This document shows positions 25,189 through 61,440 of a stretch of 64,000 nt of DNA, in pieces. Source of the stretch: Rhynchopus sp. YZ270_cl-10 (taxonomy: Eukaryota); the NCBI GenBank assembly GCA_964035575.1, contig OZ037846.1, positions 372,001-436,000 of the forward strand, in the 5' to 3' direction. How positions within the stretch are numbered: position 1 is the first letter of the stretch; every line of letters begins with the position of its first letter. A program made the position numbers and the translations under genes. The notes under the pieces were generated by a model. The model had not been told where the DNA came from. It saw nothing but the letters and a program-made list of their open reading frames with translations, and searched no databases.

Positions 25189-26922
25189 CTACTTCACGGA
25201 ACAGATCTGAGAGCAACACACAACACTGCACGTCCCAGAAGGAACTGCGTGTGCTGGTGTGCCAACCCCTCCCGCAGCTGTCCATGCCTTGGCAACGTCA
25301 AGGTCAGACTGCCCACCGCGCAGGTACCCACGCACAGCAGTGTTGTACTCCTCCCAATGCTTCTTCCCACCTATCATGTACATCCACTCGTCAGCTGAAA
25401 CTGCCGTGTTCTCTTGTTTCGCAATCAGTTCCGCCACAACCTGTGCCTCACAGCCAGAAGCAACCTCCACCTTGCACGGAAGCAGACGCAGCTGGTGTTC
25501 GCACTCAGCATCGCTGAAGCACATCCTGTTGCACACCACATCACACCCCAGCATACGCCCCACACGTTCCAGACCGTTCACATCACGCACAAGCTCCCCT
25601 ACCATGCTGAACCGACGCATCACCTCGCAACCCATGTCACCACGCAGCACCTTCCCAGTCGCAACACCAGCATTCACCTTCTCACAAAAGCTGCTCGCAC
25701 CCTTCAGAAGCAGGCTTGCTGCATGCAGTGCAGATGTGGCATGTGTCGCACACTGCTTCGAGGCGTTGAACGAACAGTGGATCCTGTCCCCGATGAACAC
25801 GTCCACCATCCCACGTCTTGTCTCTGTTGCCTGCAGGGTCTTCAGGAGGAGAGTGGTGAAGAAAGAGGAGTAGGTCGCACTGTCCTTCTCCAGCAAATGC
25901 AGGGTGTTCTTCACGTTCAGTGTCAGCAGGGTTGTCATGACCGAGGACAGACCCAGTGGCAGGCACACTGGCATGGTCTCAAGTCTGCAATTAGAGGACT
26001 CTGTGGATGCGTCTGTTGTCTCTGTCAGGTCATCGTGCTCACTGCTCCCTGCGCATGTTCTCTCCACCTCATCCTGAAAAGGCAGACACGTCTTCGGGAG
26101 GTACGCTTTGTACATGCGCAGGTTCTTCTCCAGTCTCCACAGGGCAGCAGTCATCCCCTCAGGCAGGTCACCCCCATGCACGTCCAGCATCTCCGCCACC
26201 TGCTCCACGTCGTACCCCGCAAGAAGCGACGCAATCTCCTGCACAACGCTGATCGTGCGCCTCATTGACTCCTGCTCCTTCAGCACGTCGTGCGCAAACC
26301 TGCGTGTTACGAAGAAGTCGCTCACGAATACAAAAAGTGTGGCGATAAGGTCAAATGGGGGAAATGATGTCTTGCAGGGAAGGAACTCGCAGTCAGTTTT
26401 TTCACTCATGATCGATCTCCGGCTTTTGTGCTCACCTTCGTACGGCAACAACCCAGGAAGGTCAAACAAACCAAACCTGAAGCCTTCTTCACATGCCATC
26501 AGGAGAAGCCACACCACTGTCGCACCCACGAAACCTGCACTGTACCGTGATGGGACTTCCATCACAAGCAACATGTCCACAACCAGGATCAGAAGTGGCC
26601 AGCCAACAAAACCATAAGTACGTGCGTCCAAATCCCACAGGAAAATGCTCACGCTGAAAGAGTACAGGAAGCCCACCACAAATGTGGTGTGCAGTTGCTG
26701 CTTGCAGAGCACCTTAACAATGCCAACGCACCCGCTAAGAACAACGATAGTAGACCCAAGCACGTTCACTGTCTGTACCGTCACATCGTCCTGATGCATC
26801 ATAAATGCCAACACAGTCACGAGGACTGAAACCACACAGAACGCAAACATGATGGTACGCTTCTTCACCTCGTCAGCACTGAGCGACCCGTCAATGGTCA
26901 GTGCGCTGTTCAGGCACCGCAT
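25189..26922 (-). CDS. Multi-pass membrane protein with degenerate class III adenylate/guanylate cyclase-like domain, paralog 1
   Basis: Several N-terminal hydrophobic helices. Cyclase-like motifs LLTLNVKN, GMVDVFIGDRIHCSFN, AGVATGKVLRGDMG and FSMVGELV. First ATG is at 26922; the ORF track starts at a GTG 21 nt upstream. Confidence 0.8.
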   Translation of the reverse strand: MRCLNSALTIDGSLSADEVKKRTIMFAFCVVSVLVTVLAFMMHQDDVTVQTVNVLGSTIVVLSGCVGIVKVLCKQQLHTTFVVGFLYSFSVSIFLWDLDARTYGFVGWPLLILVVDMLLVMEVPSRYSAGFVGATVVWLLLMACEEGFRFGLFDLPGLLPYEGEHKSRRSIMSEKTDCEFLPCKTSFPPFDLIATLFVFVSDFFVTRRFAHDVLKEQESMRRTISVVQEIASLLAGYDVEQVAEMLDVHGGDLPEGMTAALWRLEKNLRMYKAYLPKTCLPFQDEVERTCAGSSEHDDLTETTDASTESSNCRLETMPVCLPLGLSSVMTTLLTLNVKNTLHLLEKDSATYSSFFTTLLLKTLQATETRRGMVDVFIGDRIHCSFNASKQCATHATSALHAASLLLKGASSFCEKVNAGVATGKVLRGDMGCEVMRRFSMVGELVRDVNGLERVGRMLGCDVVCNRMCFSDAECEHQLRLLPCKVEVASGCEAQVVAELIAKQENTAVSADEWMYMIGGKKHWEEYNTAVRGYLRGGQSDLDVAKAWTAAGGVGTPAHAVPSGTCSVVCCSQICSVK

Positions 26923-33659: not shown

Positions 33660-35396
33660 CTACTTCACGGAACACATCTGAGAGCAACACACAACACTGC
33701 ACGTCCCAGAAGGAACTGCGTGTGCTGGTGTGCCAACCCCTCCCGCAGCTGTCCATGCCTCAGCAACATCAAGGTCAGACTGCTCACCACGCAGGTACCC
33801 ACGCACGGCAATGTTGTACTCCTCCCAATGCTTCTCCCCACCTATCATGTACATCCACTCGTCAACTGCTTCTTCTGCATCACTCAACTGAGACATCACT
33901 TCCGCCACAACCTGTGCCTCACAACCAGAGGCAACCTCCACCTTGCACGGAAGCAGACGCAGCTGGTGTTCGCACTCAGCATCGCTGAAGCATATCCTGT
34001 TGCACACCACATCACACCCCAGCATACGCCCCACACGTTCCAGACCGTTCACATCACGCACAAGCTCCCCCACCATGCTGAACCGACGCATCACCTCACA
34101 ACCCATGTCACCACGCAGCACCTTCCCAGTCGCAACACCAGCATTCACCTTCTCACAAAAGCTGCTCGCACCCTTCAGAAGCAGGCTTGCTGCATGCAGT
34201 GCAGATGTGGCATGTGTCGCACACTGCTTCGAGGCGTTGAACGAACAGTGGATCCTGTCCCCGATGAACACGTCCACCATCCCACGTCTTGTCTCTGTTG
34301 CCTGCAGGGTCTTCAGGAGGAGAGTGGTGAAGAAAGAGGAGTAGGTCGCACTGTCCTTCTCCAGCAAATGCAGGGTGTTCTTCACGTTCAGTGTCAGCAG
34401 GGTTGTCATGACCGAGGACAGACCCAGTGGCAGGCACACTGGCATGGTCTCAAGTCTGCAATTAGAGGACTCTGTGGATGCGTCTGTTGTCTCTGTCAGG
34501 TCATCGTGCTCACTGCTCCCTGCGCATGTTCTCTCCACCTCATCCTGAAAAGGCAGACACGTCTTCGGGAGGTACGCTTTGTACATGCGCAGGTTCTTCT
34601 CCAGTCTCCACAAGGCAGCAGTCATCCCCTCAGGCAGGTCACCCCCATGCACGTCCAGCATCTCCGCCACCTGCTCCACGTCGTACCCCGCAAGAAGCGA
34701 CGCAATCTCCTGCACAACGCTGATCGTGCGCCTCATTGACTCCTGCTCCTTCAGCAAATTGTGCGCAAACCTGCGTGTCACGAAGAAGTCGATCAGGAAG
34801 ACAGCAAGAGTGGAAGTCAAGTTAATTGGGGGAAATGGTGTCTTGCAGGGCAAGAACTCACAGTTTACCCTTTCTGTAACAACCGCTCTCCTGCTGTGTT
34901 CACCTTCGTACGGCAACAACCCAGGAAGGTCAAACAAACCAAACCTGAAGGATTCCTCACATGCCATCAGGAGAAGCCACACCATTGTCGCACCCACGAA
35001 ACCTGCACTGTACCGTGATGGGACTTGCATCACAAGCAACATGTCCACAACCACGATGAGAAGTGGCCAGCCAACAAAACCATAAGTACGTGCATCCAAA
35101 TCCCACATGAAGATTCCAATGCCAGCGATGTACATAACGCCCACCACAAACGTGGTGTGCAGTTGCTGCTTGCAGAGCACCTTAACAATGGGAACAGACG
35201 CAACTGTAACGACTATGCAAGATCCGAGCTCGTTAACTATCCGGTATTGCACGTCGGTCCTCCCCTGATGAAAAACAGAAAAAGCCAGGGTAGATACTAC
35301 TGAAACCACACAGAACACAAACATGATGGTGCGCTTCTTCACCTCGTCAGCACTGAGAGACCCGTCAATGGTCAGTGCGCTGTTCAGGCACCGCAT
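33660..35396 (-). CDS. Multi-pass membrane cyclase-like protein, paralog 2
   Basis: Same architecture and near-identical cyclase-like domain to paralog 1. ATG at 35396. Confidence 0.8.
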   Translation of the reverse strand: MRCLNSALTIDGSLSADEVKKRTIMFVFCVVSVVSTLAFSVFHQGRTDVQYRIVNELGSCIVVTVASVPIVKVLCKQQLHTTFVVGVMYIAGIGIFMWDLDARTYGFVGWPLLIVVVDMLLVMQVPSRYSAGFVGATMVWLLLMACEESFRFGLFDLPGLLPYEGEHSRRAVVTERVNCEFLPCKTPFPPINLTSTLAVFLIDFFVTRRFAHNLLKEQESMRRTISVVQEIASLLAGYDVEQVAEMLDVHGGDLPEGMTAALWRLEKNLRMYKAYLPKTCLPFQDEVERTCAGSSEHDDLTETTDASTESSNCRLETMPVCLPLGLSSVMTTLLTLNVKNTLHLLEKDSATYSSFFTTLLLKTLQATETRRGMVDVFIGDRIHCSFNASKQCATHATSALHAASLLLKGASSFCEKVNAGVATGKVLRGDMGCEVMRRFSMVGELVRDVNGLERVGRMLGCDVVCNRICFSDAECEHQLRLLPCKVEVASGCEAQVVAEVMSQLSDAEEAVDEWMYMIGGEKHWEEYNIAVRGYLRGEQSDLDVAEAWTAAGGVGTPAHAVPSGTCSVVCCSQMCSVK

Positions 35397-37841: not shown

Positions 37842-39587
37842 CTACTTCACGGAACACATCTGAGAACAACACACAACACTGCACGTCCCGGAAGGAACTG
37901 CGTGTGCTGGTGTGCCAACCCCTCCCGCAGCTGTCCATGCCTCAGCAACGTCAAGGTCAGACTGCTCACCAAGTAGGTACCCACGCACGGCAGTGTTGTA
38001 CTCCTCCCAATGCTTCTTCCCACCTATCATGTACATCCACTCGTCAGCTGAAACTGCTGTGTCCTCTTGTTTTGCAATAAGTTCCGCCACAACCTGTGCC
38101 TCACAACCAGAGGCAACCTCCACCTTGCACGGAAGCAGACGCAGCTGGTGTTCGCACTCAGCATCGCTGAAGCACATCCTGTTGCACACCACATCACATC
38201 CCAGCATACGCCCCACACGTTCCAGCCCGTTCACATCACGCACAAGCTCCCCCACCATGCTGAACCGACGCATCACCTCACAACCCATGTCACCACGCAG
38301 CACCTTCCCAGTCGCAACACCAGCATTCACCTTCTCACAAAAGCTGCTCGCACCCTTCAGAAGCAGGCTTGCTGCGTGCAGTGCAGATGTGGCATGTGTC
38401 GCACACTGCTTCGAGGCGTTGAACGAACAGTGGATCCTGTCCCCGATGAACACGTCCACCATCCCACGTCTTGTCTCTGTTGCCTGCAGGGTCTTCAGGA
38501 GGAGAGTGGTGAAGAAGGAGGAGTAGGTCGCACTGTCCTTCTCCAGCAAATGCAGGGTGTCCTTCACGTTCAGTGTCAGCAGGGTTGTCTTGACCGAGGA
38601 CAGACCCAGTGGCAGGCACACTGGCATGGTCTCATTTCTCGAATGTGAGGACTCTGTGGATGTGTCTGTTATCTCTGTCACATCTCCGTCGTGTTCACCC
38701 CCGTCGCTCTCTGAGTCCACCTTCTCCACCTCATCCTGAAAAGGCAGACACGTCTTCGGGAGGTACGCTTTGTACATGCGCAGGTTCTTCTCCAGTCTCC
38801 ACAGGGCAGCAGTCATCCCCTCAGGCAGGTCACCCCCATGCACGTCCAGCATCTCCGCCACCTGCTCCACGTCGTACCCCGCAAGAAGCGACGCAATCTC
38901 CTGCACAACGCTGATCGTGCGTCTCATTGACTCCTGTTCCTTCAGCACGTTGTGTGCAAACCTGCGTGTCACGAAGAAGTCGATCAGGAAGACAAAAAGT
39001 GTGGAAGCGAAGCCAAGTGGGGGAAATGACGTCTTGCAGGGAAGGAACTCGCAGTCTATCTTTTCCAGAATCAACGCTCTCCTGCTGTGTTCACCTTCGT
39101 GCGGTGGCAACCCAGGAAGGTCAAACAAACCAAACCTGAAGGATTCCTCACACCCTATGAGAAACAACCACACCACTGTTGCACCCACGAACCATGCACT
39201 GTACCGTGATGGGACTTCCATCACAAGCAACATGTCCACAACCAGGATCAGCATTGGCCAGCTCATTAAACCATAAGTGCGTGCGACTAAATCCCACATA
39301 AAAATTGCAATGCCAGCGATGTACATGATGCCCACCACAAACGTGGTGTGCAGTTTCTGCTTGCAGAGCAGCTTAACAATGGCAACAAACCCCGTTGTAA
39401 GGACTATGCAAGACGCGAATACGTTAACAATCCGGTGTTGCACGTTGGTACTCCCCTTGTGAGAAACAAAAACAACCAGAATCGCAAATACTGAAACCAC
39501 ACAGAACACAAACATGATGGTGCGCTTCTTCACCTCGTCAGCACTGAGAGACCCGTCAATGGTCAGTGCGCTGTTCAGGCACCGCAT
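37842..39587 (-). CDS. Multi-pass membrane cyclase-like protein, paralog 3
   Basis: Same architecture as paralogs 1 and 2, with shared 5' flank (cacatagcaaaggtttgtgAGgatc...ATG). ATG at 39587. Confidence 0.8.
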   Translation of the reverse strand: MRCLNSALTIDGSLSADEVKKRTIMFVFCVVSVFAILVVFVSHKGSTNVQHRIVNVFASCIVLTTGFVAIVKLLCKQKLHTTFVVGIMYIAGIAIFMWDLVARTYGLMSWPMLILVVDMLLVMEVPSRYSAWFVGATVVWLFLIGCEESFRFGLFDLPGLPPHEGEHSRRALILEKIDCEFLPCKTSFPPLGFASTLFVFLIDFFVTRRFAHNVLKEQESMRRTISVVQEIASLLAGYDVEQVAEMLDVHGGDLPEGMTAALWRLEKNLRMYKAYLPKTCLPFQDEVEKVDSESDGGEHDGDVTEITDTSTESSHSRNETMPVCLPLGLSSVKTTLLTLNVKDTLHLLEKDSATYSSFFTTLLLKTLQATETRRGMVDVFIGDRIHCSFNASKQCATHATSALHAASLLLKGASSFCEKVNAGVATGKVLRGDMGCEVMRRFSMVGELVRDVNGLERVGRMLGCDVVCNRMCFSDAECEHQLRLLPCKVEVASGCEAQVVAELIAKQEDTAVSADEWMYMIGGKKHWEEYNTAVRGYLLGEQSDLDVAEAWTAAGGVGTPAHAVPSGTCSVVCCSQMCSVK

Positions 39588-40959
39588 CGTTGGGCTTTTG
39601 ATCCTCACAAACCTTTGCTATGTGTGGAGCAGGGGTGTGTGGATGTGTCTTGTGTGCACTGGTGGGTGGTGTGGTTAATGTTAGGTTAATAACGGTGCTG
39701 CAACCCAAACAGACGTGCCTTCTACCAGAGACCTATAGTGATATATGCATTGGCTACTGATCACGACATGGACGTGAGGGACCTGCTGCTTAATTGGCAC
39801 CGTCGCATCTTCACCGAGGTGAGAAGTGGCGACACCCGCTTGAACATTGTCAACGCTGCAGCGGGCGAGGTTTCGCAAGGAGTGGCATTGCAACAACAAT
39901 GTGTGAACCGTTTTCACGTACCCCATATGTTGGCTATCTGGAGCCGCATGGTTGTGGTGTAAGGGTTACCTGCGATGCAGAAGACGGTGCGAGGCAAAAT
40001 GTCCAGGATGTTGGAAGGGAGTGAAGTTGGTGGGGTCGCGTACTTATTACGGCCCGCGGGAAAATAAAATAAAATGGACACGTTCCCTAAGGCCATCGCA
40101 GATCGTGTGAACGAGGAGGAGAACAAACCCAACATGCGGCGCGTGTACACGGCACAGGAGGTTAGGCAGGTGTACGATTATGGTCGTCAGGATGGGGCAG
40201 CGATCGCAGCCAGAAAGTAAGCGCAGGGGCAATCTCTGCCCAATGTAAAAAGGCCGAGGGCCAACACACAACACCGAGACAAATACCAGAAACCCTTCCC
40301 ACTCACCTTAGATAATATTTTTTTGGGAAAAGTCACTTAGTGCCCAAGTTTGTTGTACCCATTTAGGATAATACCCAGTGGGTATTATCCTAAATTATTT
40401 GGGTATTATCCTAAATTATTTTGGGTATTATCCTAAATTATTTTTGGGTACTGGGTACTGGGTACTGGGTACTGGGTACTGGGTACTGGGTACTGGGTAC
40501 TGGGTACTGGGTACTGGGTACTGGGTACTGGGTACTGGGTACTGGGTACTGGGTACTGGGTACTGGGTACTGGGTACTGGGTACCCAGAACGAAGGCACC
40601 TTGACAGCAGCGAAGGCAAGACAAGGTATGTACCGGGTAAATACGTAACTTTCTGGTGAATATTCAACAAAATAATTGCGCTTTCTTCGCCCCAAGGTGT
40701 GGCAGAGCCTACTGACTCTGGGCTGACGACAAAAGGGGACATGCCCCCCCCCCCCCGTTTTTTTGTAGTGGAACATTTCACAACGACGTTTCACAACCAC
40801 ACAACCATCACAGGATTGTGAGATCTGAACTGCATGCACAATTGCGATGAGAACCTTAGCCGGTCACAAGAAACTGAAATGGTATGACATTCACCCTCTA
40901 CCTCCCCCCCCACAGTTACTTTTAGTTGAGCCTTTTAATTAGTATTTTTTTAAAAAATA

Positions 40960-43959
40960 ATGGATGACATTGTCAAGTTGGCGGAATCGCTGGAGCGGTT
41001 TTCCCGTATGGTGGAGCAAGGATTGCTGTCTGTTTCGGAGTTTGAAGCGCTGAAAGTGCAGTGTTACGAGAGGACGTGGGGCCTGCAAATGGGAATCGGT
41101 GCTCAGACGCCACAGCTTGCCCCTGTTAGTGCTCAAACGTCACAGATTGCCCCCAAACTGAGGTCGCAGGCACGTACCAGGACCCCAGTTACTGATGACA
41201 CACCGCCGCCTACCGCCAACCCACCTGCTACGATGTCGCCTGCGCCGCCTGCTCCGCCTGCCAGAAAGCCGCGTACCCCGTCTACCCCGAACCCAGCCTC
41301 CGCGAACGTGTCTCTCCCGTCCACGAACCCAGCCTCCGCGAACGTGTCTCTCCCGTCTTCGACGAACTCAGCTTCCACGAACCTGCCTGCCAGAAGCCCT
41401 CCTGTCAGGTCTTCTGCGAACCTGCGCTCTACTTCTTCCACAACATCATCTGCCATGAACCCGCCTGCATCTGCCATGAACCCGCCTGCATCTGCCATGA
41501 ACCCGCCTGCATCTGCCATGAACCCGCCTGCCAACAACGTGCCTCCTCAGCCTGCGGCCCACTCGCCCACCACAGCGGCAGTCTCCAGCGCCTCTACTCA
41601 CCTCAATGGGGCAACATTCGGGGAAATGACGAATCTGCGGAACTTCGTCATTGCGGCAATAATGAGGGATAAGAAGAAGATGCGTGCGTGCAGGAGTGAC
41701 AAAACCAGGTGGGAAGTTGTTTGCTCTGGCGTTGTCGGGACAGGGGAAGAACAGCAGAAGTGTGCATGGTTCGTGAAGGTGAAGAAGCAAAAGGCAGCTG
41801 ATGGTGGCTTGTTCGAAGTGTCTTGCCCGTATGATCACACGTGCCTAGGTCCTGTTACGGACAAGTCGGAGCGCTTCACCGGAAGGAACGTCCGCACCAC
41901 CCACAAGGACGCTCTCGCAAGCGCGAGCCACACTCCGGCTCAGGTGCAGGCCAACGCTGCAGGGAACCCGAGGTACGGCGTGGCGCGCCGGGCCATAATG
42001 GCCAGCGTGAAGGAGAGGTGGGGTTCCGGGGAGGATAGTTGGAGGCAGGTTCCCAACTACCTGCTCAAGTTGGAGGAGGCTGACGCTGCGACGAAGACCT
42101 ACCACGGCACTGGTTTGGTCGTCGAGGGGCCTTTTATTTGCTTTGGTGCGGCACAGAAGGCATTACCGCATCTCGCGCCGGTTTATGCGGCAGATGCAAC
42201 GCACTGCGACGGCGAGGGGGCAACAGGCGTTCTCTTTTTTTTTGTTGGGGTCGATCCTCTAAGTAGGATTTACCCTCTCAGTATGATGTGGGCCCCAGCA
42301 GAGAATGGCGACTGTTGGAAGCAGTTCTTGACGCAAACTGCAAAGGCACTGGGATTATCTGCGGGCGGCACCCTCTACACCGACCACTTTAAGGGTATAG
42401 AAAGTACCGTTGCTTCGGTTCTCCCCCTTTTCGTGCATTTGCTGTGCGGTACTCACCTCAAGAGAACCGTCGCCAAATTCGGGAAGGACACCGTGGAGAA
42501 GTTTTCGTTGCTGGAGCGTTGTACGACCCACAGGGCGTTCAATGAGATACTGGCGGCGATCGGGAAGAAGAGCTCCGCGGCCAAGGAGTACCTGCACCGT
42601 TACGCGCCGATGTTTGCGGACGTGAAGGTGCCGACGACGACAGTACGTGCATACCATTATGGTACCAACGTTGCAGAAAGCTGCAACAACTGGATGGGGG
42701 CACGCCGTCACTTGCCGATTCTTGGGGTATTGGATTCGTTTCGGGTAAAGTGCATGGAGATGTTTGCAACGAGGCGTAAGGAATCGGAGAACCTGGTTGA
42801 TGTCGAGTTGACTCCATTTTTTCGGTCCAAAATTGAGTTATTATGCAATGATGCACAAACTTTTCGTGTCACCCCCTCTAGTGATACGGAGTACGAGGTG
42901 AAGAAGCGCGCCGAGAACGTGAACGCCGCACGCTACAAAGTGGTGATCCCGCTGACGGAGAGCGACAGAGGGCAGGCATCCTGCAGTTGTCCGCACTTGC
43001 AGGTGCACAAGATGTGCGTCCACTTTGTTGCCGCACTCGTGTTCTCCGGGAAGCAGGTGGATCTCTTCGTTCCTTCGTTCATGCGGAACTCGGCCCTCAA
43101 GGCAGTCTACTCCCACGGCATCCCCCCCATCGACATCGAAGAACTCGACGCTGACCACTCCAAGAACGCGCCCATACTTCATGTGAAAAGACCTGGACGC
43201 CCTAGGGTGAAGCGGATGAGGGTCAACAACGAGCACGTACACAGCAGCGCCTCCTCCGCCAAAAGAGTGAAGCTGGCCACCAGCAACCCCCCATCATGCC
43301 CCATGCCTTCAGACGCAGTTGCCAGGCCAGCCCTGGATTCGGACCCTGATATCAGGGTCCCAATCACCAGGCACGTTCGGGGTGGGGAGCACCGTGCCGA
43401 GTACGAGTGCGGGTGGGCGTGCATGAACTGGGTTCTGCACCACGTTGGGGAGGAGAGAATTCTATATTCTCTTGCCCACAACGTACAGTCCCACCTGTCC
43501 GGCAGTCTCGCGAGTTTGGGGGACCAGTCCGAGGAGGAGCTGCTGGGGGGGAATTTCTCCGTGAGCACCATCATGCTCATCCTCCTCAGCCGCGGTGTGC
43601 TGGTGAGCCATGCGGACGTGCCGTCGAACCCCAGGGCTCTTGTGGGGTACCTCATGGGGCCGCAGCAAGGAGGGCATCCTCACTGGGTGACTGGGCTTGA
43701 GGATGAAGCGGGGTCCGGGTACCGGATTATGGACACGGACGAACCGGAGCAGGTCATGACATTCCGGCAACTGCAGAGTGAATTTGCTGCATGGGAGATT
43801 TTTTCAGTTCAGGTGATGGAGCAGATGACGGTCGCGCAGCTGAAGGAAGAAGCATCCGGTCGAATGCCGGACACGCGTTTGCCAACCCTGAAAGCTGATC
43901 TTGTCAGGGCTCTGGCACAGAGCGCCGTTAACGTGTGCCCCATTCTTAGAAGGCCTTAG
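40960..43959 (+). CDS. MULE (Mutator-like) DDE transposase with SWIM finger, plus SHOCT-like N-terminus, Josephin-like protease and SAP domain, 999 aa
   Basis: DDE triad in AADATH, YTDHFKG and NVAESCN, with CxxH (CGTH). SWIM motif CSC......MCVH. N-terminal LERFSRMVEQGLLSVSEFEALK. C817 (CGWACMN), GNFSV, H908 (HW) and D925. C-terminal MTVAQLKEE...LKADLVRAL. Confidence 0.88.
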   Translation: MDDIVKLAESLERFSRMVEQGLLSVSEFEALKVQCYERTWGLQMGIGAQTPQLAPVSAQTSQIAPKLRSQARTRTPVTDDTPPPTANPPATMSPAPPAPPARKPRTPSTPNPASANVSLPSTNPASANVSLPSSTNSASTNLPARSPPVRSSANLRSTSSTTSSAMNPPASAMNPPASAMNPPASAMNPPANNVPPQPAAHSPTTAAVSSASTHLNGATFGEMTNLRNFVIAAIMRDKKKMRACRSDKTRWEVVCSGVVGTGEEQQKCAWFVKVKKQKAADGGLFEVSCPYDHTCLGPVTDKSERFTGRNVRTTHKDALASASHTPAQVQANAAGNPRYGVARRAIMASVKERWGSGEDSWRQVPNYLLKLEEADAATKTYHGTGLVVEGPFICFGAAQKALPHLAPVYAADATHCDGEGATGVLFFFVGVDPLSRIYPLSMMWAPAENGDCWKQFLTQTAKALGLSAGGTLYTDHFKGIESTVASVLPLFVHLLCGTHLKRTVAKFGKDTVEKFSLLERCTTHRAFNEILAAIGKKSSAAKEYLHRYAPMFADVKVPTTTVRAYHYGTNVAESCNNWMGARRHLPILGVLDSFRVKCMEMFATRRKESENLVDVELTPFFRSKIELLCNDAQTFRVTPSSDTEYEVKKRAENVNAARYKVVIPLTESDRGQASCSCPHLQVHKMCVHFVAALVFSGKQVDLFVPSFMRNSALKAVYSHGIPPIDIEELDADHSKNAPILHVKRPGRPRVKRMRVNNEHVHSSASSAKRVKLATSNPPSCPMPSDAVARPALDSDPDIRVPITRHVRGGEHRAEYECGWACMNWVLHHVGEERILYSLAHNVQSHLSGSLASLGDQSEEELLGGNFSVSTIMLILLSRGVLVSHADVPSNPRALVGYLMGPQQGGHPHWVTGLEDEAGSGYRIMDTDEPEQVMTFRQLQSEFAAWEIFSVQVMEQMTVAQLKEEASGRMPDTRLPTLKADLVRALAQSAVNVCPILRRP

Positions 43960-44491
43960 AAGGCCACAAAATTTTTATCAGAAAAGAATCATCATCAAAA
44001 TAGTTCAACTTAATTTTTGCTACCTCCTCCCTTCCCATTCTCGACACTTTCCCCTCCAACAGAACATTATTTTACACCCTCAGGCCAACTTATTTTTTTA
44101 AGAAGTCAGCTTCTTTAATTTCCCCACCGCTCACAACTTCACTTTTAAACAGGTATCGCGAACAACATCGAGAAGCAACTGTGAGAAGGTCACTGGCACC
44201 CACTGTCGACCCACCATAGGGAGACAGTATTGAAGTAGCATGGTATGATTTCCACCCCTCTACACCGCACACTTTAACAGTTTTTTTTTGTAGTGGACGT
44301 TCCTCTTTACATATCGTCCCTCTTTTCTGTTTCACTGAAAATTGAAACTGGCAAAATAAATTTTTCACTGCTGAGTAAAAGTAGCTCAAAGAAACTCGTG
44401 TCTCACTTTATCCTCCTCGCCACTCTCGCGCTGCCGTAGCAATGTGCCGCACAGCTTACAGACATGCTGGCCCAGAACTCGAGTCTCAATT

Positions 44492-44805
44492 CCCACAAGG
44501 ACGCTCTCGCGCGCTCAAGCGCGAGCCACACTCCGGCTCAGGTGCAGGCCAACGCTGCAGGGAACCCGAGATGCTGGCTTGTTGAAGGACACCGTGGGGA
44601 AGTTTTCGTTGCTGGAAACACCTCTACACCGCCCACTTTACGGTACTCACCTCAAGAGAACCGTCGCGAAATTCGTGAAGGACACCGTGGAGAAGTTTTC
44701 GTTGCTGGAGCGTTGTACCCCCACAGTGTTTCGTGCATTTGCTGTGCGAAAGTATATTATGTATTGCATAATATTATGCTGCTCGGCCCTGAAAGCTGTC
44801 GACTC
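44492..44805 (+). pseudogene. Scrambled mosaic of short fragments of the adjacent MULE ORF
   Basis: Segments match approximately 41900-41972, 41801-41818, 42483-42515, 42369-42391, 42447-42533, 42428-42448 and 43089-43112, in that non-colinear order. Confidence 0.8.
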
Positions 44806-47454
44806 GTATTTCCTCCAAAAAGTCTCCAGAACAATATTTTAAACCCTCAAGCCAACTTATTTTTTTAAGAAGTCACCTTCTTTAATTTCCCCACCACTCA
44901 CAACTTCACTTTTAAACAGGTATCGCGAGTGCAGCATCGAGAACCAACTGTGCAGAACGAGCGCATATGCGGTGGAAAGGGTGGTGGGAACACTCTGTCA
45001 GTCACTGCTATAGCCATTTAACCCAGGGAGCATAGCTAGTGCAAGAAATTCGACTTTGGAAACCTTCCGGAAAGTCTGTCCTCTGCTTACGGAGGACGAG
45101 GCACAAGAAAATATTGCGTTCCCCCAGAAAACCAGTGCACAATTCACACTCCTTGTGGGTGGTCTTGTTGCCTTTTTGTCACAGTAATTTTGGCCCAGGC
45201 ATGCTCTTGAAGCATGACAATTTAGTGTGTATGGGGCAGGGTGTTGTTTTGTTCTGAATTCTCTTTGTTATAACATCTAAGTCAATCGCGGGTGGTGGTT
45301 TGTGTAGCGTGAGGCACTCTTTTTAATAAACTTCCTGCAGTTGCTATGCACTGTTATTTCTTCGGATTTATCATCATACAGCGTAACATAGTGGATTCGC
45401 CTGGTCGACACAACCTTTGATAGATACGGGATAACCAACCCCCTTCGACCCCTTGTGGGTTCACTGAACAAGCCCTAGTGGTAGTTAAACGCGATTGACA
45501 TTTACATTCCTAGAGATGAAAGAACAAGATAACACTTCTGTACCCGCGCATCAAAATTGTGGAAAACTTTGCACCCCAAACACCCTCAACAACGCCCGCC
45601 AAAAGGCGCCCCTTGTTGCTGGGAGTTGGTTCTCATGATACCTGCACAGCGGGCATTCCTCTGAGTCCAACGCATGTTTGGCCTGTCTGCGGCGTTGTAC
45701 TTAAGGTGCACGAAGACTGGGTCTGGTGGTAAATTTTGCGTAGTACTGCGACGTGGTACTGCGTGGGTCTGGGAATTTGGGTACCTGGGTACGGGAAATT
45801 TGTTGTGGAAGACATCAACCACCATGCATTGAGGAGGGTAAGACAGTGTTCGCAGTTTCTACCTGATAGCATTACAACATTTAACTTCTCCACGGGGGTC
45901 TTGGGCCGTTCACTCGGTTCTACCTTGACTACCGGAAGATATTCTTGAGGCCTTTTTGGTCTCTAGAATATCCGGTCTTCCCGAACGGAGGCACACTTTG
46001 TGTGTTACTACGACCTGGCAATTTCCAGCAGTAGGTTAAGTAATCTTTCTTGTAAATTGTTGGATCATTATCTCCTCAGTGCATGAATGCCCCACGTGAC
46101 TGGACACTTTTGTGTTTGTCATGTGGAGCTGTGGTTGCTCTTTCACGACTTTTTTCCTGTTCCTGGGTACCTGTTCTTGGACCTGGACCTGGGTACCTGG
46201 GTACCTGGGTACCTGGGTACCTGGGTACCTGGGTACCTGGGTACCTGGGTACCTGGGTACCTGGGTACCTGGGTACCTGGGTACCTGGGTACCTGGGTAC
46301 CTGGGTACCTGGGTACCTGGGTACCTGGGTACCTGGGTACCTGGGTACCTGGGTACCTGGGTACCTGGGTACCTGGGTACCTGGGTACCTGGGTACCTGG
46401 GTACCCAGTACCCAGTACCCAAAAATAATTTAGGATAATACCCAAAATAATTTAGGATAATACCCAAATAATTTAGGATAATACCCAAATAATTTAGGAT
46501 AATACCCACTGGGTATTATCCTAAATGGGTACTAGAAACTTGGGTACTAGCCTAATTACCCCTATTTTTTTCTTCAAAAATTATTACGCGTCCACTCGAC
46601 GTTTGGATAAAGAAAACTAGAGATGAAAGGGGGTGTGTGTGTGTGTGATGGGGAGCACGGGAAGGGGAAAACGACTCGTGGATACTGAAAAATTTCGCTA
46701 GAAATGCAGATATGCCTTGCAAAATATTAATTACGTCGCACACTACTTACGTCGCGTACAAATTAAGTCGGCATTTGCCCTAACCGACTAAATTAGTACG
46801 CGACGGAATGTTCAACTCACCTCACAAAACTCACAGCTTAGTGCAGGGCCCATTCAATAAGGATACCCGACTTGAACTTCGTGTGAGACCATCAGAAAGG
46901 TGCAGACCCTCTACTCTACCGCCAACGTGGGTTATTGACGCAACATGAGACAAACGTCTACACACTGTGTGGAAGCTGGCGAATGCGCTGGCAAGCCAAA
47001 TGGTCGACACTCCTTCGTTCGTGCCAAGAGGACCACAACTCATTGAATATCCCTCGTCTGACATGACATCCATAACAGGAGCAAGAGCAATAAAAAAACA
47101 AGCAATCAGCGTAGCAGTGATCAACAAACTGAATCGAGACGTCGATTTGTGCACGATCTTGACTAAAGGGGGGGCCCAAATAAGTTTACCCCCAAATAAT
47201 AGCTATTTTCCCAAATAACTTTTTTTTTTCTCAGATTTTGGGTGCCGAAAAAGTTACCGAATAACTTCGCCCCCTCTCACCTCCTTTTTTATTTTTCAAA
47301 AATTTCCCCCAAACTGATAGTGTACTATATAAAATGGCGCCGCAGGCGAAAAAATTTTATGGTACGGTGTAAAAAGCTAGTTTTTTACACCACAGATATA
47401 ATCATCTAGGCGGCAGCCACGCTGGAGAAGGAAGTCTGGGGCGAAACAGATTTA

Positions 47455-50092: not shown

Positions 50093-53000
50093 ACCCAGGT
50101 GCCCAGGTGCCCAGGTACCCAGGTGCCCAGGTACCCAGGTACCCAGGTACCCAGGTACCCAGGTACCCAGGTACCCAGGTACCCAGGTACCCAGGTACCC
50201 AGGTACCCAGGTACCCAGGTACCCAGGTACCCAGGTACCCAGGTACCCAGGTACCCAGGTCCAGGTCCAGGAACAGGTACCCAGGAACAGGAAAAAAGTC
50301 GTGAAAGAGCAACCACAGCTCCACATGACAAACACAAAAGTGTCCAGTCACGTGGGGCATTCATGCACTGAGGAGATAATGATCCAACAATTTACAAGAA
50401 AGATTACTTAACCTACTGCTGGAAATTGCCAGGTCGTAGTAACACACAAAGTGTGCCTCCGTTCGGGAAGACCGGATATTCTAGAGACCAGAAAGGCCTC
50501 AAGAATATCTTCCGGTAGTCAAGGTAGAACCGAGTGAACGGCCCAAGACCCCCGTGGAGAAGTTAAATGTTGTAATGCTATCAGGTAGAAACTGCGAACA
50601 CTGTCTTACCCTCCTCAATGCATGGTGGTTGATGTCTTCCACAACAAATTTCCTGTACCCAGGTACCCAAATTCCCAGACCCACGCAGTGGCACATGACC
50701 GCCAAGTGTGAGTGACCCACACATGAGGGAATGCGACACTACGCAAAATTTACCACCAGACCCTGTCTTCGTGCACCTGAAGTACAACGCCGCAGACAGG
50801 CCAAACATGCGTTGGACTCAGAGGAATGCCCGCTGTGCAGGTATCAAACATGAGAACCAACTCCCAGCAACAAGGGGCGCCTTTTGGCGGGCGTTGTTGA
50901 GGGTGTTTGGGGTGCAAAGTTTTCCACAATTTTGATGCGCGGGTACAGAAGTGTTGTCTTGTTCTTTCATCTCTAGGAATGTAAATGTCAATCGCGTTTA
51001 ACTACCACGAGGGCTTGTTTAGTGAACCCACGAGGGGTCGAAGGGGGTTGGTTATCCCATATCTATCAAAGGTTGTGTCGACCAGGCGAATCCACTATGT
51101 TACGCTGTACGTTGTTAAATCCGAAGAAATAACGCTTTAGCAGCCGCAGGAAGTTTGTTAAAAAGAGTGCCTCACGCTACACAAACCACCACCCGCGATT
51201 GACTTAGATGTTATAACAAAGAGAATTCAGAACAAAACAACACCCTGCCCCATACACACTAAATTGTCATGCTTCAAGAGCATGCCTGGGCCAAAATTAC
51301 TGTGACAAAAAGGCAACAAGACCACCCACAAGGAGTGTGAAATGTGCACTGGTTTTCTGGGGGAACGCAATATTTTCTTGTGCCTCGTCCTCCGCAAGCA
51401 GAGGACAGACTTTCCGGAAGGTTTCCAAAGTCGAATTTCTTGCACTAGCTATGCTCCCTGGGTTAAATGGCAATAGCAGTGACTGACAAAGTGTACCCAT
51501 CCCCCTTCCACCCCAGATCTTAGTCCGCAAACTCAGAATGGATTGATGCGGGTGATACTCTTTGGATTTTGAGTTGCTGAATGTCGGAGACGCGGCGAGG
51601 CTTCTCATCACAATCGCAGATGCAGTTCAGATTTCACGATCCTGTGATGAGTGTAAATGTGGAGTGTGATTAATGAATGAAATGTATGGTGTAGAAACGC
51701 AGTTATCGGGAAAGGTGAGGTTAATGTGGTAAAAAAAGGGGATAAAACTCGTGTAATTTTGTGAATTCCCACAAAGGTGGGTGATAATGTGCCCTTTGTC
51801 ACTCAATTGTAACCGAGAATGTATGGGAGAATGAAATATTATTTCCCAACCCAACAACAACGATAAAGCGTGAAGACAATAAATGAAATCAAAGCGGAAT
51901 AAATTTGAGGTTTTGTGAGGCACTCAACGAGTGTGCCGGCTCTGTGGCGTCACGGAGCCACCAACACTCCCCAGTCATTTTTCCTGCGCTTCCAGGAAAA
52001 CTCGCGTTTGCGACCAGGCCGAAACGAAAAAATTTAATTCACAGCAAACAGGTGTGAGGGAGAAGAAAAGAAAGTGAACAAAAACGAAAAAACAATGTTT
52101 TTCTGAAATGTGATGTTGTTGGGGTGGGGAGAATAAAACAGTTCCAGAAAAGCTCCTGCGTCGGTTTTCTTTTGGTTAAAAAAATCACTCAGTAAAAAAA
52201 AGAACTTTTTCATCACTCCCCTCAAACACTGCCAAAACGAAGAAGGACAGGATGTATGACACTTACGGATACCAAGTCTCAGCGGGTATGAGAAGCAAGG
52301 AGGTGTACAAGAAGAAATGGGACGAGTTCTTGCGGTTTTCAAACCTCGAGCGACTTGGTCCGCTTTGTATTGACACGGACCTCGACACCCCGACATGTAC
52401 TGGCTTTTGAGAAAGGCAGTCGGTTCCTCGGTAGATTGCGTGCAAGTGAGGGAATATCCATCTGCTTGGAAGACGTCAAAACACCAAACATAGTATTTCG
52501 CGACATAAAGGGCAGATCAAATACTCACTGCCTTACATTCTCGGTTACAATTGAGTGACACAAAGGGCATATAATCTGCAAAATTACACGAGTTTTATTT
52601 CACTGAGTTAGATAATTATTATCTCATGAAATAAAGTGAACATTATTTCACGAGGTGGTGGGTGACTCAAACTGGGGCTCAACTTCACGAAGCGAGTGGA
52701 GTTCAGCATTTTGATTTCATGAGTGAAGTGAGTGTAATCATAAAAGTGATGTCACGAGCGATAGCGAGTGGGTATCACGTATTCCAGTTTGTGAATCACC
52801 CATCAGTTAAATAATGTTCACTTTAGTTTTCGATACGTAATTTTATACCACGCGTGAAAAACGTAAACAGGTGAAAAAGTGAGTGAAATAAGATTCGTTT
52901 TATTTCACGTTTTATTTCACGCAAATCGTGAAGGATTGGGTGGGGGAGTGAAATAAAAGATCACGGAGTGATCTGAAGGACACGACGTGTTCTTCCCTGG

Positions 53001-54364
53001 GCTCGTTCGCTCCTGAAAGTCTGTTGAAACGGAGGAAATCGTCCCATGTTTTCCTGTACTGCACACCACTGTTCATGTCGTCGAACAAGTTGTCATATGC
53101 ATCCTCCATCTCCGCAAACTTGCGCGTGGGTTTAGGCATGTGTGTAAGAGGCAATAAATAATCTGTAATTTGAAGTGTGGTGGTGTGAGGGGTGGAGCGT
53201 GGGCTCAACGTTCCACTGTTTACACCTATAAATACGTTTTTCACTTGTGGAATAAAATTACATATTGAGTGAAATAAGAACATTTTCTTGCACTTGCCAC
53301 TAAAAAGGCACCCTCGTGACTCTCACTCTTATTCCCCTCGCTTCGCTCGGGAAATAACGCACTCGGGCACCTTTTTAGTGGCGCGTGAAATAAAATAGTT
53401 CTTATTTCACTCGAATAAATAGTTATTATCTCACGGGCAATAATGTTGTGCTGCGTTTTCGAAATTCCTACAGTATATTTGACAAATGATGTATGACCAC
53501 CTAGTACGGGGCGTCAAGGTTGGGTATGGTGAACAGTTCCTCGAAGTCCTATGACTGCAACCCTTTTGGTTGCATGCGCAGATCTCCTCCACATTGCTTT
53601 TGCGCCTACTCTCGGCATGGGTTTTGTTTTGTTCTTTGTGTGCGGAGATAATGTCTACTGTATTTTGTGTAATCTCCAGGAAGGAATTTCGAAAACGCGG
53701 CTAAACATTATTACACAAGTGAGATAAAAAATTGTTGGCTCTCTCTCTGTTGTTTTGGCTTTTGTTTTTTTGTCTATTTGTGACGAGGCCTGGAACACCT
53801 GAACATAGGCATATCTGGAAAATCTATCTGAGGTGTGGCAAATTAAATATTCAAGCGTGTGGTTGAGGCGCACCTAAACATAAGTAAGTGCCAAGTCTGA
53901 ACATTTATTTTCAGAGGCCTTAGTGAGGCTGTTTCGGCCTCGTTGCATTGTATCATGATGTAATAAGGTTCACATACTTTCGATTCAAAGAAGAGAAAGC
54001 ACACAAGAAAATAAAATGCTGCAAACCACTGGGTGTGTTGTTTGCATCTACACAAGTAACTGAAAGTTAAACATTTACATACCTTGTCTTCCCCGTAGCC
54101 TCCGCCTTCGCTGCTGTCAAGCTGCCTTCTCTTGGTACCCAGTACCCAGTACCCAGTACCCAGTACCCAGTACCCAGTACCCAGTACCCAGTACCCAGTA
54201 CCCAGTACCCAGTACCCAGTACCCAGTACCCAGTACCCAGTACCCAGTACCCAGTACCCAGTACCCAGTACCCAGTACCCAGTACCCAGTACCCAGTACC
54301 CAGTACCCAGTACCCAGTACCCAGTACCCAGTACCCAGTACCCAGTACCCAGTACCCAGTACCC
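50093..54364 (-). mobile_element. Inverted, transposase-less relative of the 40338-46549 element
   Basis: 50093-51510 is the reverse complement of about 44975-46403, including the 8-mer array. 54075-54364 is the reverse complement of the 7-mer array and adjacent GGCACCTTGACAGCAGCGAAGGC motif. The outermost TIR portions are missing. Confidence 0.75.
52252..53140. pseudogene. Two inverted fragments resembling the N-terminal (SAM-like) region of tyrosine-recombinase/Crypton-type proteins
   Basis: The plus strand from 52252 gives MRSKEVYKKKWDEFLRFSNL and the minus strand from 53140 gives MNSGVQYRKTWDDFLRFNRL. Flanks carry GAAATAA repeats and CTCGCTTCGCTCG. The family assignment is inference. Confidence 0.4.
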
Positions 54365-55433
54365 AAATTGGTCGCCCCCTGGTTGGTCGAGAACCTAAAA
54401 ATGCAAAAAAACGCAAAATTCATGTGTTTTGACCATGTCTGGGTACACCAAATACACACCTCTGAACAAGCCTATACCCAGTAGTAGGCAACAAGCGCTA
54501 TTTTTTGACCAAGAAAAAAAAAATCCCCCAAAAATTGGGTGTAGTAGGTCATAAAATGGCCCAAAAAATTCAAAGAAAACCTCAGATTGACCAAACAATG
54601 AAAAAAATTTTCAAGTCAAATTTTCAGCCAAAATACGGCTATTTTGGTAAAACCATGTGTACTGTAGTGGCTATACAAGGCGATTTTCGGCCAAAAAAAT
54701 TTTTTTGGCCAAAAAAAAAATTTTTTTTTTCGGCCCAAAAAAAAAAAAATTTTTTTTTTTGGGTCCGACTGTCGGACCCCAGAGTCCGACAGTCGGACTC
54801 CAGAGTCCGTCTGTCGGACTCCAGAGTCCGACAGACGGACCCCTGAGTCCGTCTGTCGGACTCAGGGGGTCCGACTGTCGGACTCAGGGGGTAAGTCCGT
54901 TATTTACACACTCCAAGCACGACAGACCGCACCGTGTGTGAAAAAAAAAAAAAAAATTTTTTTTTTTGAGATTTTTGAAAAATCGGCCGATTTTGCGACC
55001 AAATTTGGCTGGGGAATTTCGGCGACCAAAGGGTCCCCCCTTTGGAAAAAAAACGAAATCGACCAAAAAACACGGGTTGCCTACGATCGTAGTGCGATCT
55101 CTTACGATCGTAGCTCTTTTTTGATCGCACTACGATCGTACTACGATCAAAGTACGATCGTAGTACGATCGTACTTACGATCGTATTATGATCGTACGAT
55201 CCTCCTTCTAAGGTGCTCGCTCTCCATACCTAGACCCTCGAATTTTTTTTTTTGCCCCTATATTGGGCTAATTTCGACGATTTGAGGCCATTAAAAGCAA
55301 AATTTGGCACTTTTGAGCATCTAGGGGGGTCTAAAACGCGGTTCCGCGAACCCAAAATTTCGTGATTTTTACCAAAGACAAGTCGATTTTTGAAAAAATC
55401 TCAAAAAAAAAAAAATCCCAATTTTTTTTTTTT

Positions 55434-59481: not shown

Positions 59482-60332
59482 CTTACAATAGTTCTGTAAC
59501 CTCTCTCTCTTTTACGGCAGGTAACCGGTTGAGGTGATACTTCCGGACTGAGGAAGGGCATTCTTTTACTTTTTTTATTTTGCCTGGACGGGGATGGGGG
59601 CGGCTTTGTCTAGATTGTTTTTATTTTGTAGTCTTTTGTTGGGTTAAGGGGATTGGCAGACAACACTGAGGACCTCCTTGGGCCACAGCTGTTGGCGTTG
59701 TCTAGCTCTACCCGGCTGTACACGGTCGGCCTGAAAACAGGTCCGAATCTAGGCTATGTGAACGAAATAAAAATAGCCAAAAAAGAAGGAGAAAGGGAAG
59801 AAGGGGGGGGAGAGGGGAGAAAAAGTAAAAACTTTTTTGTGGGGGGGAAAAAAATTTTTCCCGATATGTCGTCAGGGCTCTCGCCGGGGTCATTTGGGGT
59901 CCCGAGCTTTCCCCCCGTAAAAGCGGTCGCTGCGCGCGCTTCGCGCGCGCGACTCCCTGCCAGTGCAGGGAGGCGTGGCGCTTTCTCCCCTCTGATGCAC
60001 AAAGGCAGGTGGGGAGGGGTGAACCACAATCCGTAGTGTGTCAGCCTTATCAGTAACCTCGGTACATTTATGAAAGAAACGGCAGTCATGGCACCCAAAG
60101 GTTCCTGGCGAAGCCACGGTACGCAACATTTGAGATCTCCTCCGTCTTCCAACCCTCATAATTGAATGCGATTGACACGTCTTCTCCTTCTTCTTGTGCA
60201 CAACCTCAAATGTCTCTGATGCTGGATGCTTGCCTGCAACTGACGTGAACATCCGCACCCACAACTACAGCAACCGCCTGCAGAGCCAATTTTTTCCTCA
60301 AAAATCCGGGACTTTTTTTTTTTTCCTTTTCA

Positions 60333-61440
60333 CCCAGTGGGTATTATCCTAAATTATTTTGGGTATTATGGGTACTGGGTACTGGGTACCCAGAGAAGGC
60401 ACCTTGACAGCAGCGAAGGCGCAAGACAAGGTATGTAAATATGTTTAACTTTCTGGTGAATATTCAACAAAATAAGGCCGTCGACTCGTATTTCCTCCAA
60501 AAAGTCTCCATAACAATATTTTACACCCTCAGGCCAACTTATTTTTTAAAGAAATCACCTTCTTTAAATTCCCCACCACTCACAACTTCACTTTTAAACA
60601 GGTATCGCGAGTGCAACATCGAGAACCAACTGTGCAGAACGAGCGAACATATGGGGTGGAAAGGGGAGTGGGAACACTCTGTCAGTCACTGCTATAGCCA
60701 TTAACCCAGGGAGCATAGCTAGTGCAAGAAATTCGACTTCGGGATCCGGAAAGTCTGTCCTCTGCTTGCGGAGGACTGGGCACAATAAAATATTGCGTTC
60801 CCCCAGAAAACTAATTTTGTCACAGTAATTTTTGCCCAGGGCATGCTCTTGAAGCATGGCGGCTTGGTGTGAGAAGGGGCAGTGTATTGTTTTGTTCTAG
60901 ATTTCAACGGTTGTTAGAACGAGTCAAGTGGATGCTTATCTAAACACTGACTTTAGTACAGACCCGAGAGATCACACATGACTTTGAGGAAAGAACAAAG
61001 CAATGCATCTGTACCCGCACGCCAGGTTGTAGTTACTTCAGGATTTTCTTAAGTTTGCATGAAAGAGAAGGGGGCGAAACCTTTGTATACGTTTACGACG
61101 AAGGTAGTAACCTAATGACAACCATGTGGTGGCTGTAATTCACATCCCTTAGAATTACCAGAATTCAGCCTTTGTTGAAGTAACGTGCATACTTGTATGT
61201 GCGTGTCACGCTTCTCCACCCTTAAATGGGTGCACCGCTCGGTGAGCAGTGGTAACCCTTCTCGACTAGTGCAAACTTAAGAATTTTCTGCTGGAACTTA
61301 CCAAAATCGATTTTCTTTCACCCCAAACACCCGCAACACCCCACCTGCTACTTCGGTAGCCTGTGTTGTTGGGAGTTGGTTCTCATGTTGATCCCCAGTG
61401 ACTGTCTAGCACTGCTTCTTCTGAGCCCAACGTTGTTTGG
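60333..61440 (+). mobile_element. Third, internally deleted copy of the GGGTAC TIR family
   Basis: The left-end motif (CCCAGTGGGTATTATCCTAAATT...GGCACCTTGACAGCAGCG...TATTCAACAAAATAA) is joined directly to sequence matching 44797 onward, so the MULE ORF is absent. The right boundary is approximate. Confidence 0.7.

Follow-up and report, generated by a model that had tools for sequence, protein, structure and literature searches.

A Mutator-like transposase of Rhynchopus with a Josephin-like tail domain of predicted papain fold

What the C-terminal extension of the transposase of a Mutator-like element (MULE) might do is the question raised by the DNA analyzed here, a stretch of 64,000 nucleotides from Rhynchopus sp. 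YZ270_cl-10 (contig OZ037846.1, positions 372,001 to 436,000 of the forward strand; assembly GCA_964035575.1) that is referred to below as the window. An earlier note on this DNA, made from the sequence alone, had proposed that the transposase is fused to a Josephin-like cysteine protease and a SAP domain. Taken together, the results indicate that the extension is a papain-fold domain with Josephin as its nearest family and peptidase C39 as the next. The domain is Josephin-like by fold and catalytic triad and is not filed as a member of PF02099. The interpretation that we favor, with some reserve, is an intact MULE with an active, transposase-tethered Josephin-like isopeptidase that would remove ubiquitin or a ubiquitin-like tag.

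The fused transposase and its tail domain

The protein is encoded in the order SHOCT-like motif, Pro-Ser linker, MuDR DNA-binding domain, DDE core, SWIM finger, basic linker, Josephin-like protease, and SAP-like tail. Its parts are as follows (aa, amino acids; P0003 is a relative introduced below).

40960..43959, plus strand: single-exon, stop-free open reading frame (ORF) of 999 aa, with transposase, protease, and SAP-like tail in one frame
40987..41055, plus strand: SHOCT-like N-terminal helix pair, aa 10-32 (Pfam SHOCT, E 0.06 on a fragment, and E 0.026 in P0003, both under the cut-off)
41608..41793, plus strand: MuDR-type DNA-binding domain, aa ~217-278 (Pfam DBD_Tnp_Mut, E 0.026 on a fragment, under the cut-off)
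42193..42678, plus strand: MULE catalytic core with D412, D475, C496xxH499, and E573 (Pfam; residues kept in P0003)
42955..43038, plus strand: SWIM zinc finger, aa 666-693 (Pfam SWIM, E 0.017, under the cut-off)
43186..43221, plus strand: basic stretch KRPGRPRVKRMR, aa 743-754, resembling a nuclear localization signal (NLS) or AT-hook as read from the sequence; GRP.xKRxR is kept in P0003
43345..43827, plus strand: Josephin-like papain-fold domain, aa ~796-956, with R812, C817, N823, G864, H908, W909, and D925
43828..43929, plus strand: SAP-like helix pair, aa ~957-990

Inspection with Pfam revealed a DDE transposase domain that contains both CxxH and the D-D-E residues, which we take from MULE motifs to be D412, D475, and E573. 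The MULE profile matched aa 412-501 with an E value of 2e-5 and 25.2 bits, just under the cut-off of 27.6 that P0003 passes at 32.2, and the Transposase_mut profile matched above its cut-off (E 6e-5). The MuDR DNA-binding domain and SWIM finger gave weak matches, under the cut-off but in the order expected of a MULE, and 41 of 82 positions in aa 215-300 were identical between the window and P0003. A SHOCT-like oligomerization motif opens both transposases (aa 71-94 in P0003); we know of no other MULE transposase that starts in this way. An NLS- or AT-hook-like role of the basic stretch is suggested by its composition. A SAP-like helix pair lies where the SAP domain was proposed. Its Pfam matches were weak and all under the cut-off: in the window SAP was matched over 13 residues (E 0.011), and P0003 gave E 0.2 over the full SAP profile and E 0.025 for Rho_N.

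When the transposase part served as query in a word-index search, 7,997 candidates yielded one match other than the window's own protein. This protein, P0003 (990 aa), is 48% identical over the transposase and has the identical order of parts, including the triad and the SAP-like tail. Because P0003 is built alike, the fusion is no accident of assembly, and an assembly chimera was ruled out. Identity between the two proteins was 117 of 206 positions in the DDE core, 60 of 159 in the protease, 22 of 36 in the helix bearing the Cys, 16 of 46 in the linker that precedes it, and 14 of 34 in the SAP-like tail.

Exhaustive phmmer comparison of the tail with 1.84 billion cluster representatives yielded five matches at E<=0.001, namely the window's own protein and P0004-P0007, none of the latter four being matched by Pfam. 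A word-index search with aa 790-999 led back to the window's own protein alone, P0003 being missed, a search with the family alignment recovered only P0005 and P0006, and no relatives were found in metagenome contigs or viral contigs; proteins of 364-548 aa fell outside the range of the three protein searches. The full triad is present in two short ORFs, P0005 (202 aa) and P0006 (207 aa). The latter, from the diplonemid Lacrimia lanifica in the EukProt set, is labeled a complete transcript ORF and stands alone, with a basic NLS-like N-terminus followed by the protease domain with its triad intact; from this make-up it is a candidate domesticated or source gene. As the one named match, it also points to a diplonemid as the probable host of the element. 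P0004 ends upstream of the His. Alignments A4 and A5 were built without P0007, whose Cys is lost and whose sequence departs from the family beyond the first helix. MULE-like ORFs have been reported from Diplonema papillatum, where they are given without domain detail (PMC10161547).

The residues singled out in the earlier note were all found as described, in frame with the DDE and SWIM regions: C817 within CGWACMN (nucleotides 43408-43410), N823, GNFSV (G864-V868), H908-W909 (nucleotides 43681-43686), and D925 within YRIMD (nucleotides 43732-43734). The domain was also correctly located, except that conservation begins at aa 796-801 (nucleotide ~43345), upstream of the start at 43380 given there. 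Cys, His-Trp, and Asp were identical in all four members spanning the whole domain (window, P0003, P0005, and P0006), the other three sharing 30-39% identity with the window, so that the pattern exceeds what chance would give, and the family motif reads G-E-[GH]-R-x-x-x-E-C-G-W-A-x-x-N-W ... G-[WN]-[FI]-S ... H-W ... D-T-D. An aromatic gatekeeper thus follows the His in 4/4, and D925 lies at a spacing of 17 from H908. Descriptions of bacterial Josephins likewise give an aromatic gatekeeper after the His, with a spacing of 16 between His and Asp (bioRxiv 10.1101/2024.07.24.604956). Seven residues before the Cys, Glu or Gln was present in the family and in viral Josephins alike.

Structure prediction with AlphaFold2 used five native family sequences and no templates. 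The best of five models reached a predicted local distance difference test score (pLDDT) of 67 and a predicted template modeling score of 0.65; a single-sequence model (pLDDT 38) was discarded. In the best model, C817 lies in helix 19-33, H908 lies just ahead of strand 115-119, and D925 ends strand 126-130, which is the papain-like arrangement of a Cys in the first helix with His and Asp on neighboring strands. Foldseek comparison of this model with the Protein Data Bank (PDB) placed JOSD2 first (E 6.9e-4, TM 0.53) as the sole match below 0.001, followed by ataxin-3 (1.7e-3), the ComA C39 domain (6.9e-3), and the bacterial clippase BpJOS. VIA-align, run against 48,161 chains, also ranked JOSD2 at the top (Z 11.6, root-mean-square deviation (rmsd) 3.3, 128 aligned residues, 20% identity), with ATXN3L second (Z 10.9, rmsd 3.2, 133 aligned), the ComA C39 domain third (Z 9.4), and, at Z 8.4-9.0, a mixed group of bacterial Josephins and further C39 domains. 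The 13 chains at Z>=8 were Josephins, C39-like enzymes, UfSP1, and PeiR. The best structural match is therefore a papain-like fold, as the earlier note had anticipated, and Josephins took ranks 1 and 2 in both tools, 1.5-2.2 Z over the best C39 structure, for a model of moderate confidence. Topology and superposition suggest that C817, H908, and D925 come together, and as far as the tests reached, neither outcome that the earlier note had named as refuting appeared. Among predicted viral structures, Foldseek found no match at E<=0.001. A papain/Josephin fold of the tail domain is, on the predicted model, highly probable.

Sequence profiles were compared using panels of viral Josephins and C39 domains that had been gathered from IMG/VR by motif and then checked with Pfam. 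Removal of near-duplicates and one fragment left 11 of the 20 Josephin loci of the first round and 7 of the 9 C39 loci, all seven of the latter being confirmed as C39 or C39_2; selection of the Josephin panel on C-x-x-H-x-x-N-N means that it provides no independent count of that motif. The family profile aligned with the 11 viral Josephins at a probability of 73 (P 3e-5) over 119 columns, in which the C, G.FS, GY..G, HW, and D motifs of the two line up. With the seven C39 domains, hhalign gave a probability of 29 over 36 columns only. In a local rerun the Josephin panel scored 39.1, where shuffling gave maxima of 28.1 and 31.6, and the C39 panel scored 24.1, where the maxima were 18.7 and 22.7 (60 shuffles each). 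Embedding features from the ESM Atlas placed Josephin clusters in the top three ranks for the P0003 domain (0.88-0.89); all such scores were below 0.9 and were treated as leads only.

The IMG/VR contigs of giant viruses and other viruses (L001-L020 and L030-L067) proved to contain many divergent Josephins, with 55 motif loci, 30 of them distinct, and 3 of 11 tested were under the Pfam cut-off; a second pattern for viral Josephins contributed no further finds.

A number of observations weigh against an active Josephin-like enzyme. Five residues before the Cys, 23 of 30 viral Josephins have Gln, and 5/5 aligned family members have Arg (R812), which bears out the earlier remark that the usual oxyanion Gln is not evident. 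The HxxNN that follows the Cys is replaced by AxxNW (C-G-W-A-x-x-N-W, compared with CAQHCLNN in ataxin-3), and the Ser following the third catalytic residue, present in 11/11 sequences of alignment A6, is Thr in the family. PF02099 was matched by 0 of 6 family sequences (window, P0003, and P0004-P0007) at E<=10, when 8 of 11 viral Josephins passed the cut-off as a control. The sole Pfam hint of a protease was instead Peptidase_C39 (E 0.044-0.078, the latter in the window), and this was confined to the Cys helix, reaching 13-14 bits against a cut-off of 22 over profile positions 9-45 of 133.

The enlarged Josephin panel (30 of 55 viral Josephins after removal of near-duplicates) gave an hhalign score of 38.6 (probability 84) over the second half of the domain only, little above the maximum of 36.6 from 20-column block shuffling (other maxima 23.9 and 29.6; 80 shuffles each), and a hidden Markov model of the 30 sequences gave at most 6.6 bits. 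Searches of PDB sequences with the family profile (hmmsearch) returned irrelevant matches only and no Josephin; phmmer with the domain likewise returned irrelevant matches only. The ESM Atlas features of the window's own tail ranked C39-like clusters first (0.85).

On the structural side, the other four AlphaFold2 models had pLDDT values of 46-50, and C39 structures scored Z 9.4-8.8 in VIA-align, level with bacterial Josephins. Model residues 808-812, including Arg812, were below pLDDT 50, so the role of this Arg is unreadable from the model. The protease is also less conserved than the DDE core between the window and P0003, and contigs from sequencing runs include, besides other internal deletions, a deletion derivative without 43509-43986, which is most of the protease.

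Plain PF02099 membership was rejected given the missing profile match and the changes of Gln to Arg and HxxNN to AxxNW. What stands of the Josephin resemblance first proposed is a papain fold with Josephin nearest by Foldseek, VIA-align, and in-register profiles; family membership does not stand, and C39 is a close runner-up.

Proposed function and alternatives

An active Cys-His-Asp enzyme is inferred because the triad and the Trp gatekeeper have survived divergence to 30-39% identity, and on this conservation catalytic activity of the domain is likely. By analogy, ubiquitin or a ubiquitin-like protein is a reasonably probable substrate, since the nearest eukaryotic and bacterial fold relatives act on ubiquitin and an aromatic residue after the His is a feature of deubiquitinases (DUBs). 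The position of the protease between the basic NLS-like stretch and the SAP-like tail suggests a role at the site of transposition. In the mechanism that we propose, the transposase part would bind its own inverted repeats and would cut and paste the element, the basic linker would carry the transposase into the nucleus, and the SAP-like tail would keep the protease on DNA. Local deconjugation could then protect the transposase from the proteasome, or it could reset the ubiquitination of chromatin and of repair factors where the DNA is broken. The invariant Arg812 may replace the oxyanion Gln or may grip the substrate.

A more far-reaching version of this proposal, which we regard as unlikely, is that the family forms a new Josephin-like branch, restricted so far to diplonemids, in which Arg stands in for the oxyanion Gln and the chemistry or cut site is non-standard (clippase-like, or directed at a modifier other than ubiquitin). 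The enzyme, brought onto DNA by the transposase through SAP, would then irreversibly erase host marks at the element's own breaks, and the expressed, stand-alone Lacrimia protein would be a domesticated or source form.

The proximity of C39 raises a different prospect, one that is rather improbable, in which a papain-fold endopeptidase processes its own transposase or another peptide in the manner of C39, for example after R-G-G at aa 807-809, and thereby frees a protease-SAP fragment and switches the transposase on or off. C39 domains are the next-best structural matches in both Foldseek and VIA-align, the Cys helix CGWACMNWVLHHVG scores on Peptidase_C39, and RGG precedes the domain in both the window and P0003, with G809 kept in 5/5. 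Cleavage after Gly-Gly is a property of C39 enzymes and DUBs alike. However, Gly-Gly is present in only 2/5 members, and cutting in cis appears unlikely because the site lies 8 residues ahead of the catalytic Cys. In addition, the later half of the domain, with its G.FS, GY..G, HW, and D, aligns to Josephins and not to the C39 panel, and the stand-alone P0006 has nothing from which to be freed.

The departures around the active site could alternatively mean that a Josephin fold has been retained in a slow or dead enzyme serving as a ubiquitin-binding or scaffolding module. The change of the oxyanion Gln to Arg and the alteration of the HxxNN and Ser motifs would be accounted for in this way. 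Invariance of the Cys, His, Trp, and Asp in 4/4 complete members at such low identity is not, and a survey of papain-like families describes whole clusters without the canonical oxyanion residue (PMC10318531). We consider an inactive domain quite improbable.

Least probable is that the tail is a passenger, a captured host gene of no use in transposition whose real counterpart is the stand-alone nuclear Lacrimia protein: stand-alone ORFs of ~200 aa with the domain do exist (P0005, and P0006 with its basic N-terminus, labeled a complete transcript ORF), and MULEs are known to capture host fragments (PMC6431247, PMC5718144), but two elements that share only 48% identity have both retained the in-frame fusion and its full set of catalytic residues, and the SAP-like tail occurs in the fusions and not in the stand-alone forms. 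Ulp1/C48 identity was rejected on residue order, which is Cys-His-Asp here, and Peptidase_C48 gave no match at E<=10 in the window or P0003. The catalytic order of Ulp1 is His-Asp-Cys.

The element, its copies, and neighboring features

The ends of the element and related copies in the window are as follows.

40325..46562, plus strand: whole MULE element, 6,238 bp, with GGG...CCCC termini, inverted ends, and a 9-bp duplication
40316..40324, unstranded: left target-site duplication TATTTTTTT, 9 bp, with an exact copy at 46563-46571; both adjoin the element termini
46563..46571, unstranded: right target-site duplication TATTTTTTT, abutting the right terminus
40325..40584, plus strand: left terminal inverted repeat, with tandem arrays of 21/22 bp and 7 bp (TGGGTAC x20)
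46187..46562, minus strand: right terminal inverted repeat, with tandem arrays of 21 bp and 8 bp (ACCTGGGT x27)
44492..44957, plus strand: rearranged partial duplicates, within the element, of its own transposase (41900-41972 and 42447-42533) and 3' region (44060-44187), 92-95% by blastn
60332..60898, plus strand: non-autonomous deletion derivative of the same family, with its left end joined to 44798 via GGCC
50093..54367, minus strand: second, inverted set of family ends with no transposase ORF; 50093-51518 is like 44965-46354, and 54104-54367 is like the left arrays

Self-comparison showed the inverted ends to be 88% complementary over 151 columns (40338-40486 and 46401-46549). The 9-mer TATTTTTTT is of low complexity and occurs 61 times on the plus strand of the window, yet it adjoins both termini exactly. 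Target-site duplications of Mutator elements are 9-11 bp. Since the inverted ends, which are long and start with G, and the GGG/CCCC termini are flanked by an exact 9-mer, the element was delimited as a 6,238-bp MULE. The search for a further transposase copy with tblastn found none in the window.

Contigs from four sequencing runs (two studies) covered the MULE ORF in 4/4 runs, the best of which may be the source sample. The same proviso applies to the span from SWIM to the Cys codon (42982-43440), for which a contig with zero mismatches was present in 2/4 runs. The joint 40675->44798 of the window's derivative was found in contigs of 3/4 runs. Judged by contig depth there would be ~1 intact copy, with one deletion derivative ~20-30-fold more abundant; because depth does not measure copy number, these values were not used as evidence. 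The deletion derivatives are a sign of past activity only of the element family.

Part of the right arm (44937-45400) had a depth several thousand times that of the ORF in 4/4 runs, with many loose ends near 44977-44983. It is probably a very high-copy sequence like a miniature inverted-repeat transposable element, nested in or derived from the element family; further copies lie at 50986-51518 and 55964-56154. Inverted-repeat pairs at 47712-47926/48471-48685 and 49978-50096/54747-54885, together with 21-bp arrays, mark other non-autonomous elements.

Upstream, a satellite of 408 bp occupies 2427-22634 in 49.5 copies at 99% identity. It is followed on the minus strand by a gene for a 569-aa protein (23000-24709) that has an unusual pairing of a CAP (cysteine-rich secretory) domain with a WD40 propeller behind a signal-peptide-like start. 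Three paralogous genes of ~580 aa with an N-terminal membrane region lie at 25189-26922, 33660-35396, and 37842-39587, all on the minus strand; their C-terminal part resembles a degenerate nucleotide cyclase, the one that was scanned with Pfam gave no match, and the clusters of these neighboring genes contain no named members. Between them, an AT-rich ORF of 1,328 aa (28643-32629, minus strand) has a GIY-YIG-like motif near its N-terminus (GVIYCLV...YVGKT) and a YIDD like that of reverse transcriptases near its C-terminus. From these motifs it looks like a Penelope-like retroelement with an N-terminal endonuclease; no relevant Pfam match was obtained, and the exact protein was absent from the collection searched.

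Comparison with known systems

No MULE with a Josephin-like domain was found in the literature searched, a scope outside which lie Repbase entries and the supplements of PMC6446971, either of which could list one. A term search of the main text of that MULE survey (PMC6446971) found no protease, OTU, Ulp1, SAP, or Josephin, and the main text of two transposon reviews (PMC6431247, PMC5718144) contains no Josephin. As far as found, the pairing seen here is new for MULEs, although its parts are each of a known kind.

The closest structures are those of the Josephin/MJD family (JOSD2 6pgv, ATXN3L 3o65, and ataxin-3 2aga; PF02099), which share with the tail domain a Cys that starts the first helix, G-x-F-S, a His followed by an aromatic residue, and Asp or Asn 15-17 residues further on. 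The window's domain differs in having E-x-R-x4-C-G-W-A-x-x-N-W in place of E-x-Q-x4-C-x-x-H-x-x-N-N and D-T-D in place of D/N-S, is only ~20% identical, and forms one protein with a transposase and a SAP-like tail. The bacterial enzymes BpJOS (9f5t), PaJOS (9g7g), and PcJOS (9fn4) have the Josephin-like fold, the Cys-His-Asp triad, and the aromatic residue after the His (Z 8.7-9.0); they are, however, secreted effectors with 9-13% identity in the structural alignments and Z scores level with C39. Such divergent bacterial Josephins are reported to keep ubiquitin as substrate and to be able to shift the cut site (bioRxiv 10.1101/2024.07.24.604956). Peptidase C39 (ComA and PCAT1; PF03412) belongs to the same fold neighborhood (Z 8.4-9.4) and shares the Cys helix, but the profile match is limited to 36 columns around the Cys, and C39 enzymes process leader peptides in bacteria.

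Among mobile elements, Ulp1 on Mutator, OTU or Ulp1 on Ginger1, and C19 on a Trichomonas transposase have been described, and the ubiquitin pathway has been proposed to matter for transposition (PMC2836005). Ulp1 (C48)-bearing MULE/MuDR elements and Ginger1 resemble the present element in joining a DDE transposase in frame to a protease for ubiquitin-like modifiers, with an equal proposed role; the protease family of the Ulp1-bearing MULEs is another, without the Cys-His-Asp order seen here. Josephin-like domains have been noted on Dualen long interspersed nuclear elements and on the Chara Penelope-like element Chlamys-1_cBra, and SAP on Zisupton DNA transposons (bioRxiv 10.1101/2021.04.23.441226, citing Kojima and Fujiwara 2005). 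The accessory protease of Dualen and Chlamys-1_cBra, suggested to interfere with protein degradation, is likened to the present domain by description only, and both are retroelements, not DDE DNA transposons. The label "Josephin-related cysteine protease" (JCP) also appears in the legend to Fig. 4 of PMC9977147, the accompanying text leaving the element unnamed. Helitron VTD domains, which are active DUBs (PMC9741609), are likewise papain-fold enzymes carried by transposons but have an Asp-x-His active site, belong to rolling-circle elements, and scored Z 5.7-7.1 to the model.

Proteases of the ubiquitin/SUMO type (Ulp1, OTU, C19, VTD, and Josephin-like) have thus been acquired repeatedly by unrelated transposons, and their role in transposition is only proposed. 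The present element offers a clean test case, with an intact, intron-free ORF, defined ends and duplication, a separable domain of 160 aa in which one Cys would be catalytic, and a transcript-derived relative that stands alone. It would also extend the Josephin fold to a family unrecognized by Pfam, in which the oxyanion position is taken, unusually, by Arg. The job proposed for the Josephin-like domain is filled in other DNA transposons by Ulp1, OTU, or VTD, and the element adds a Josephin-like enzyme to the list for MULEs.

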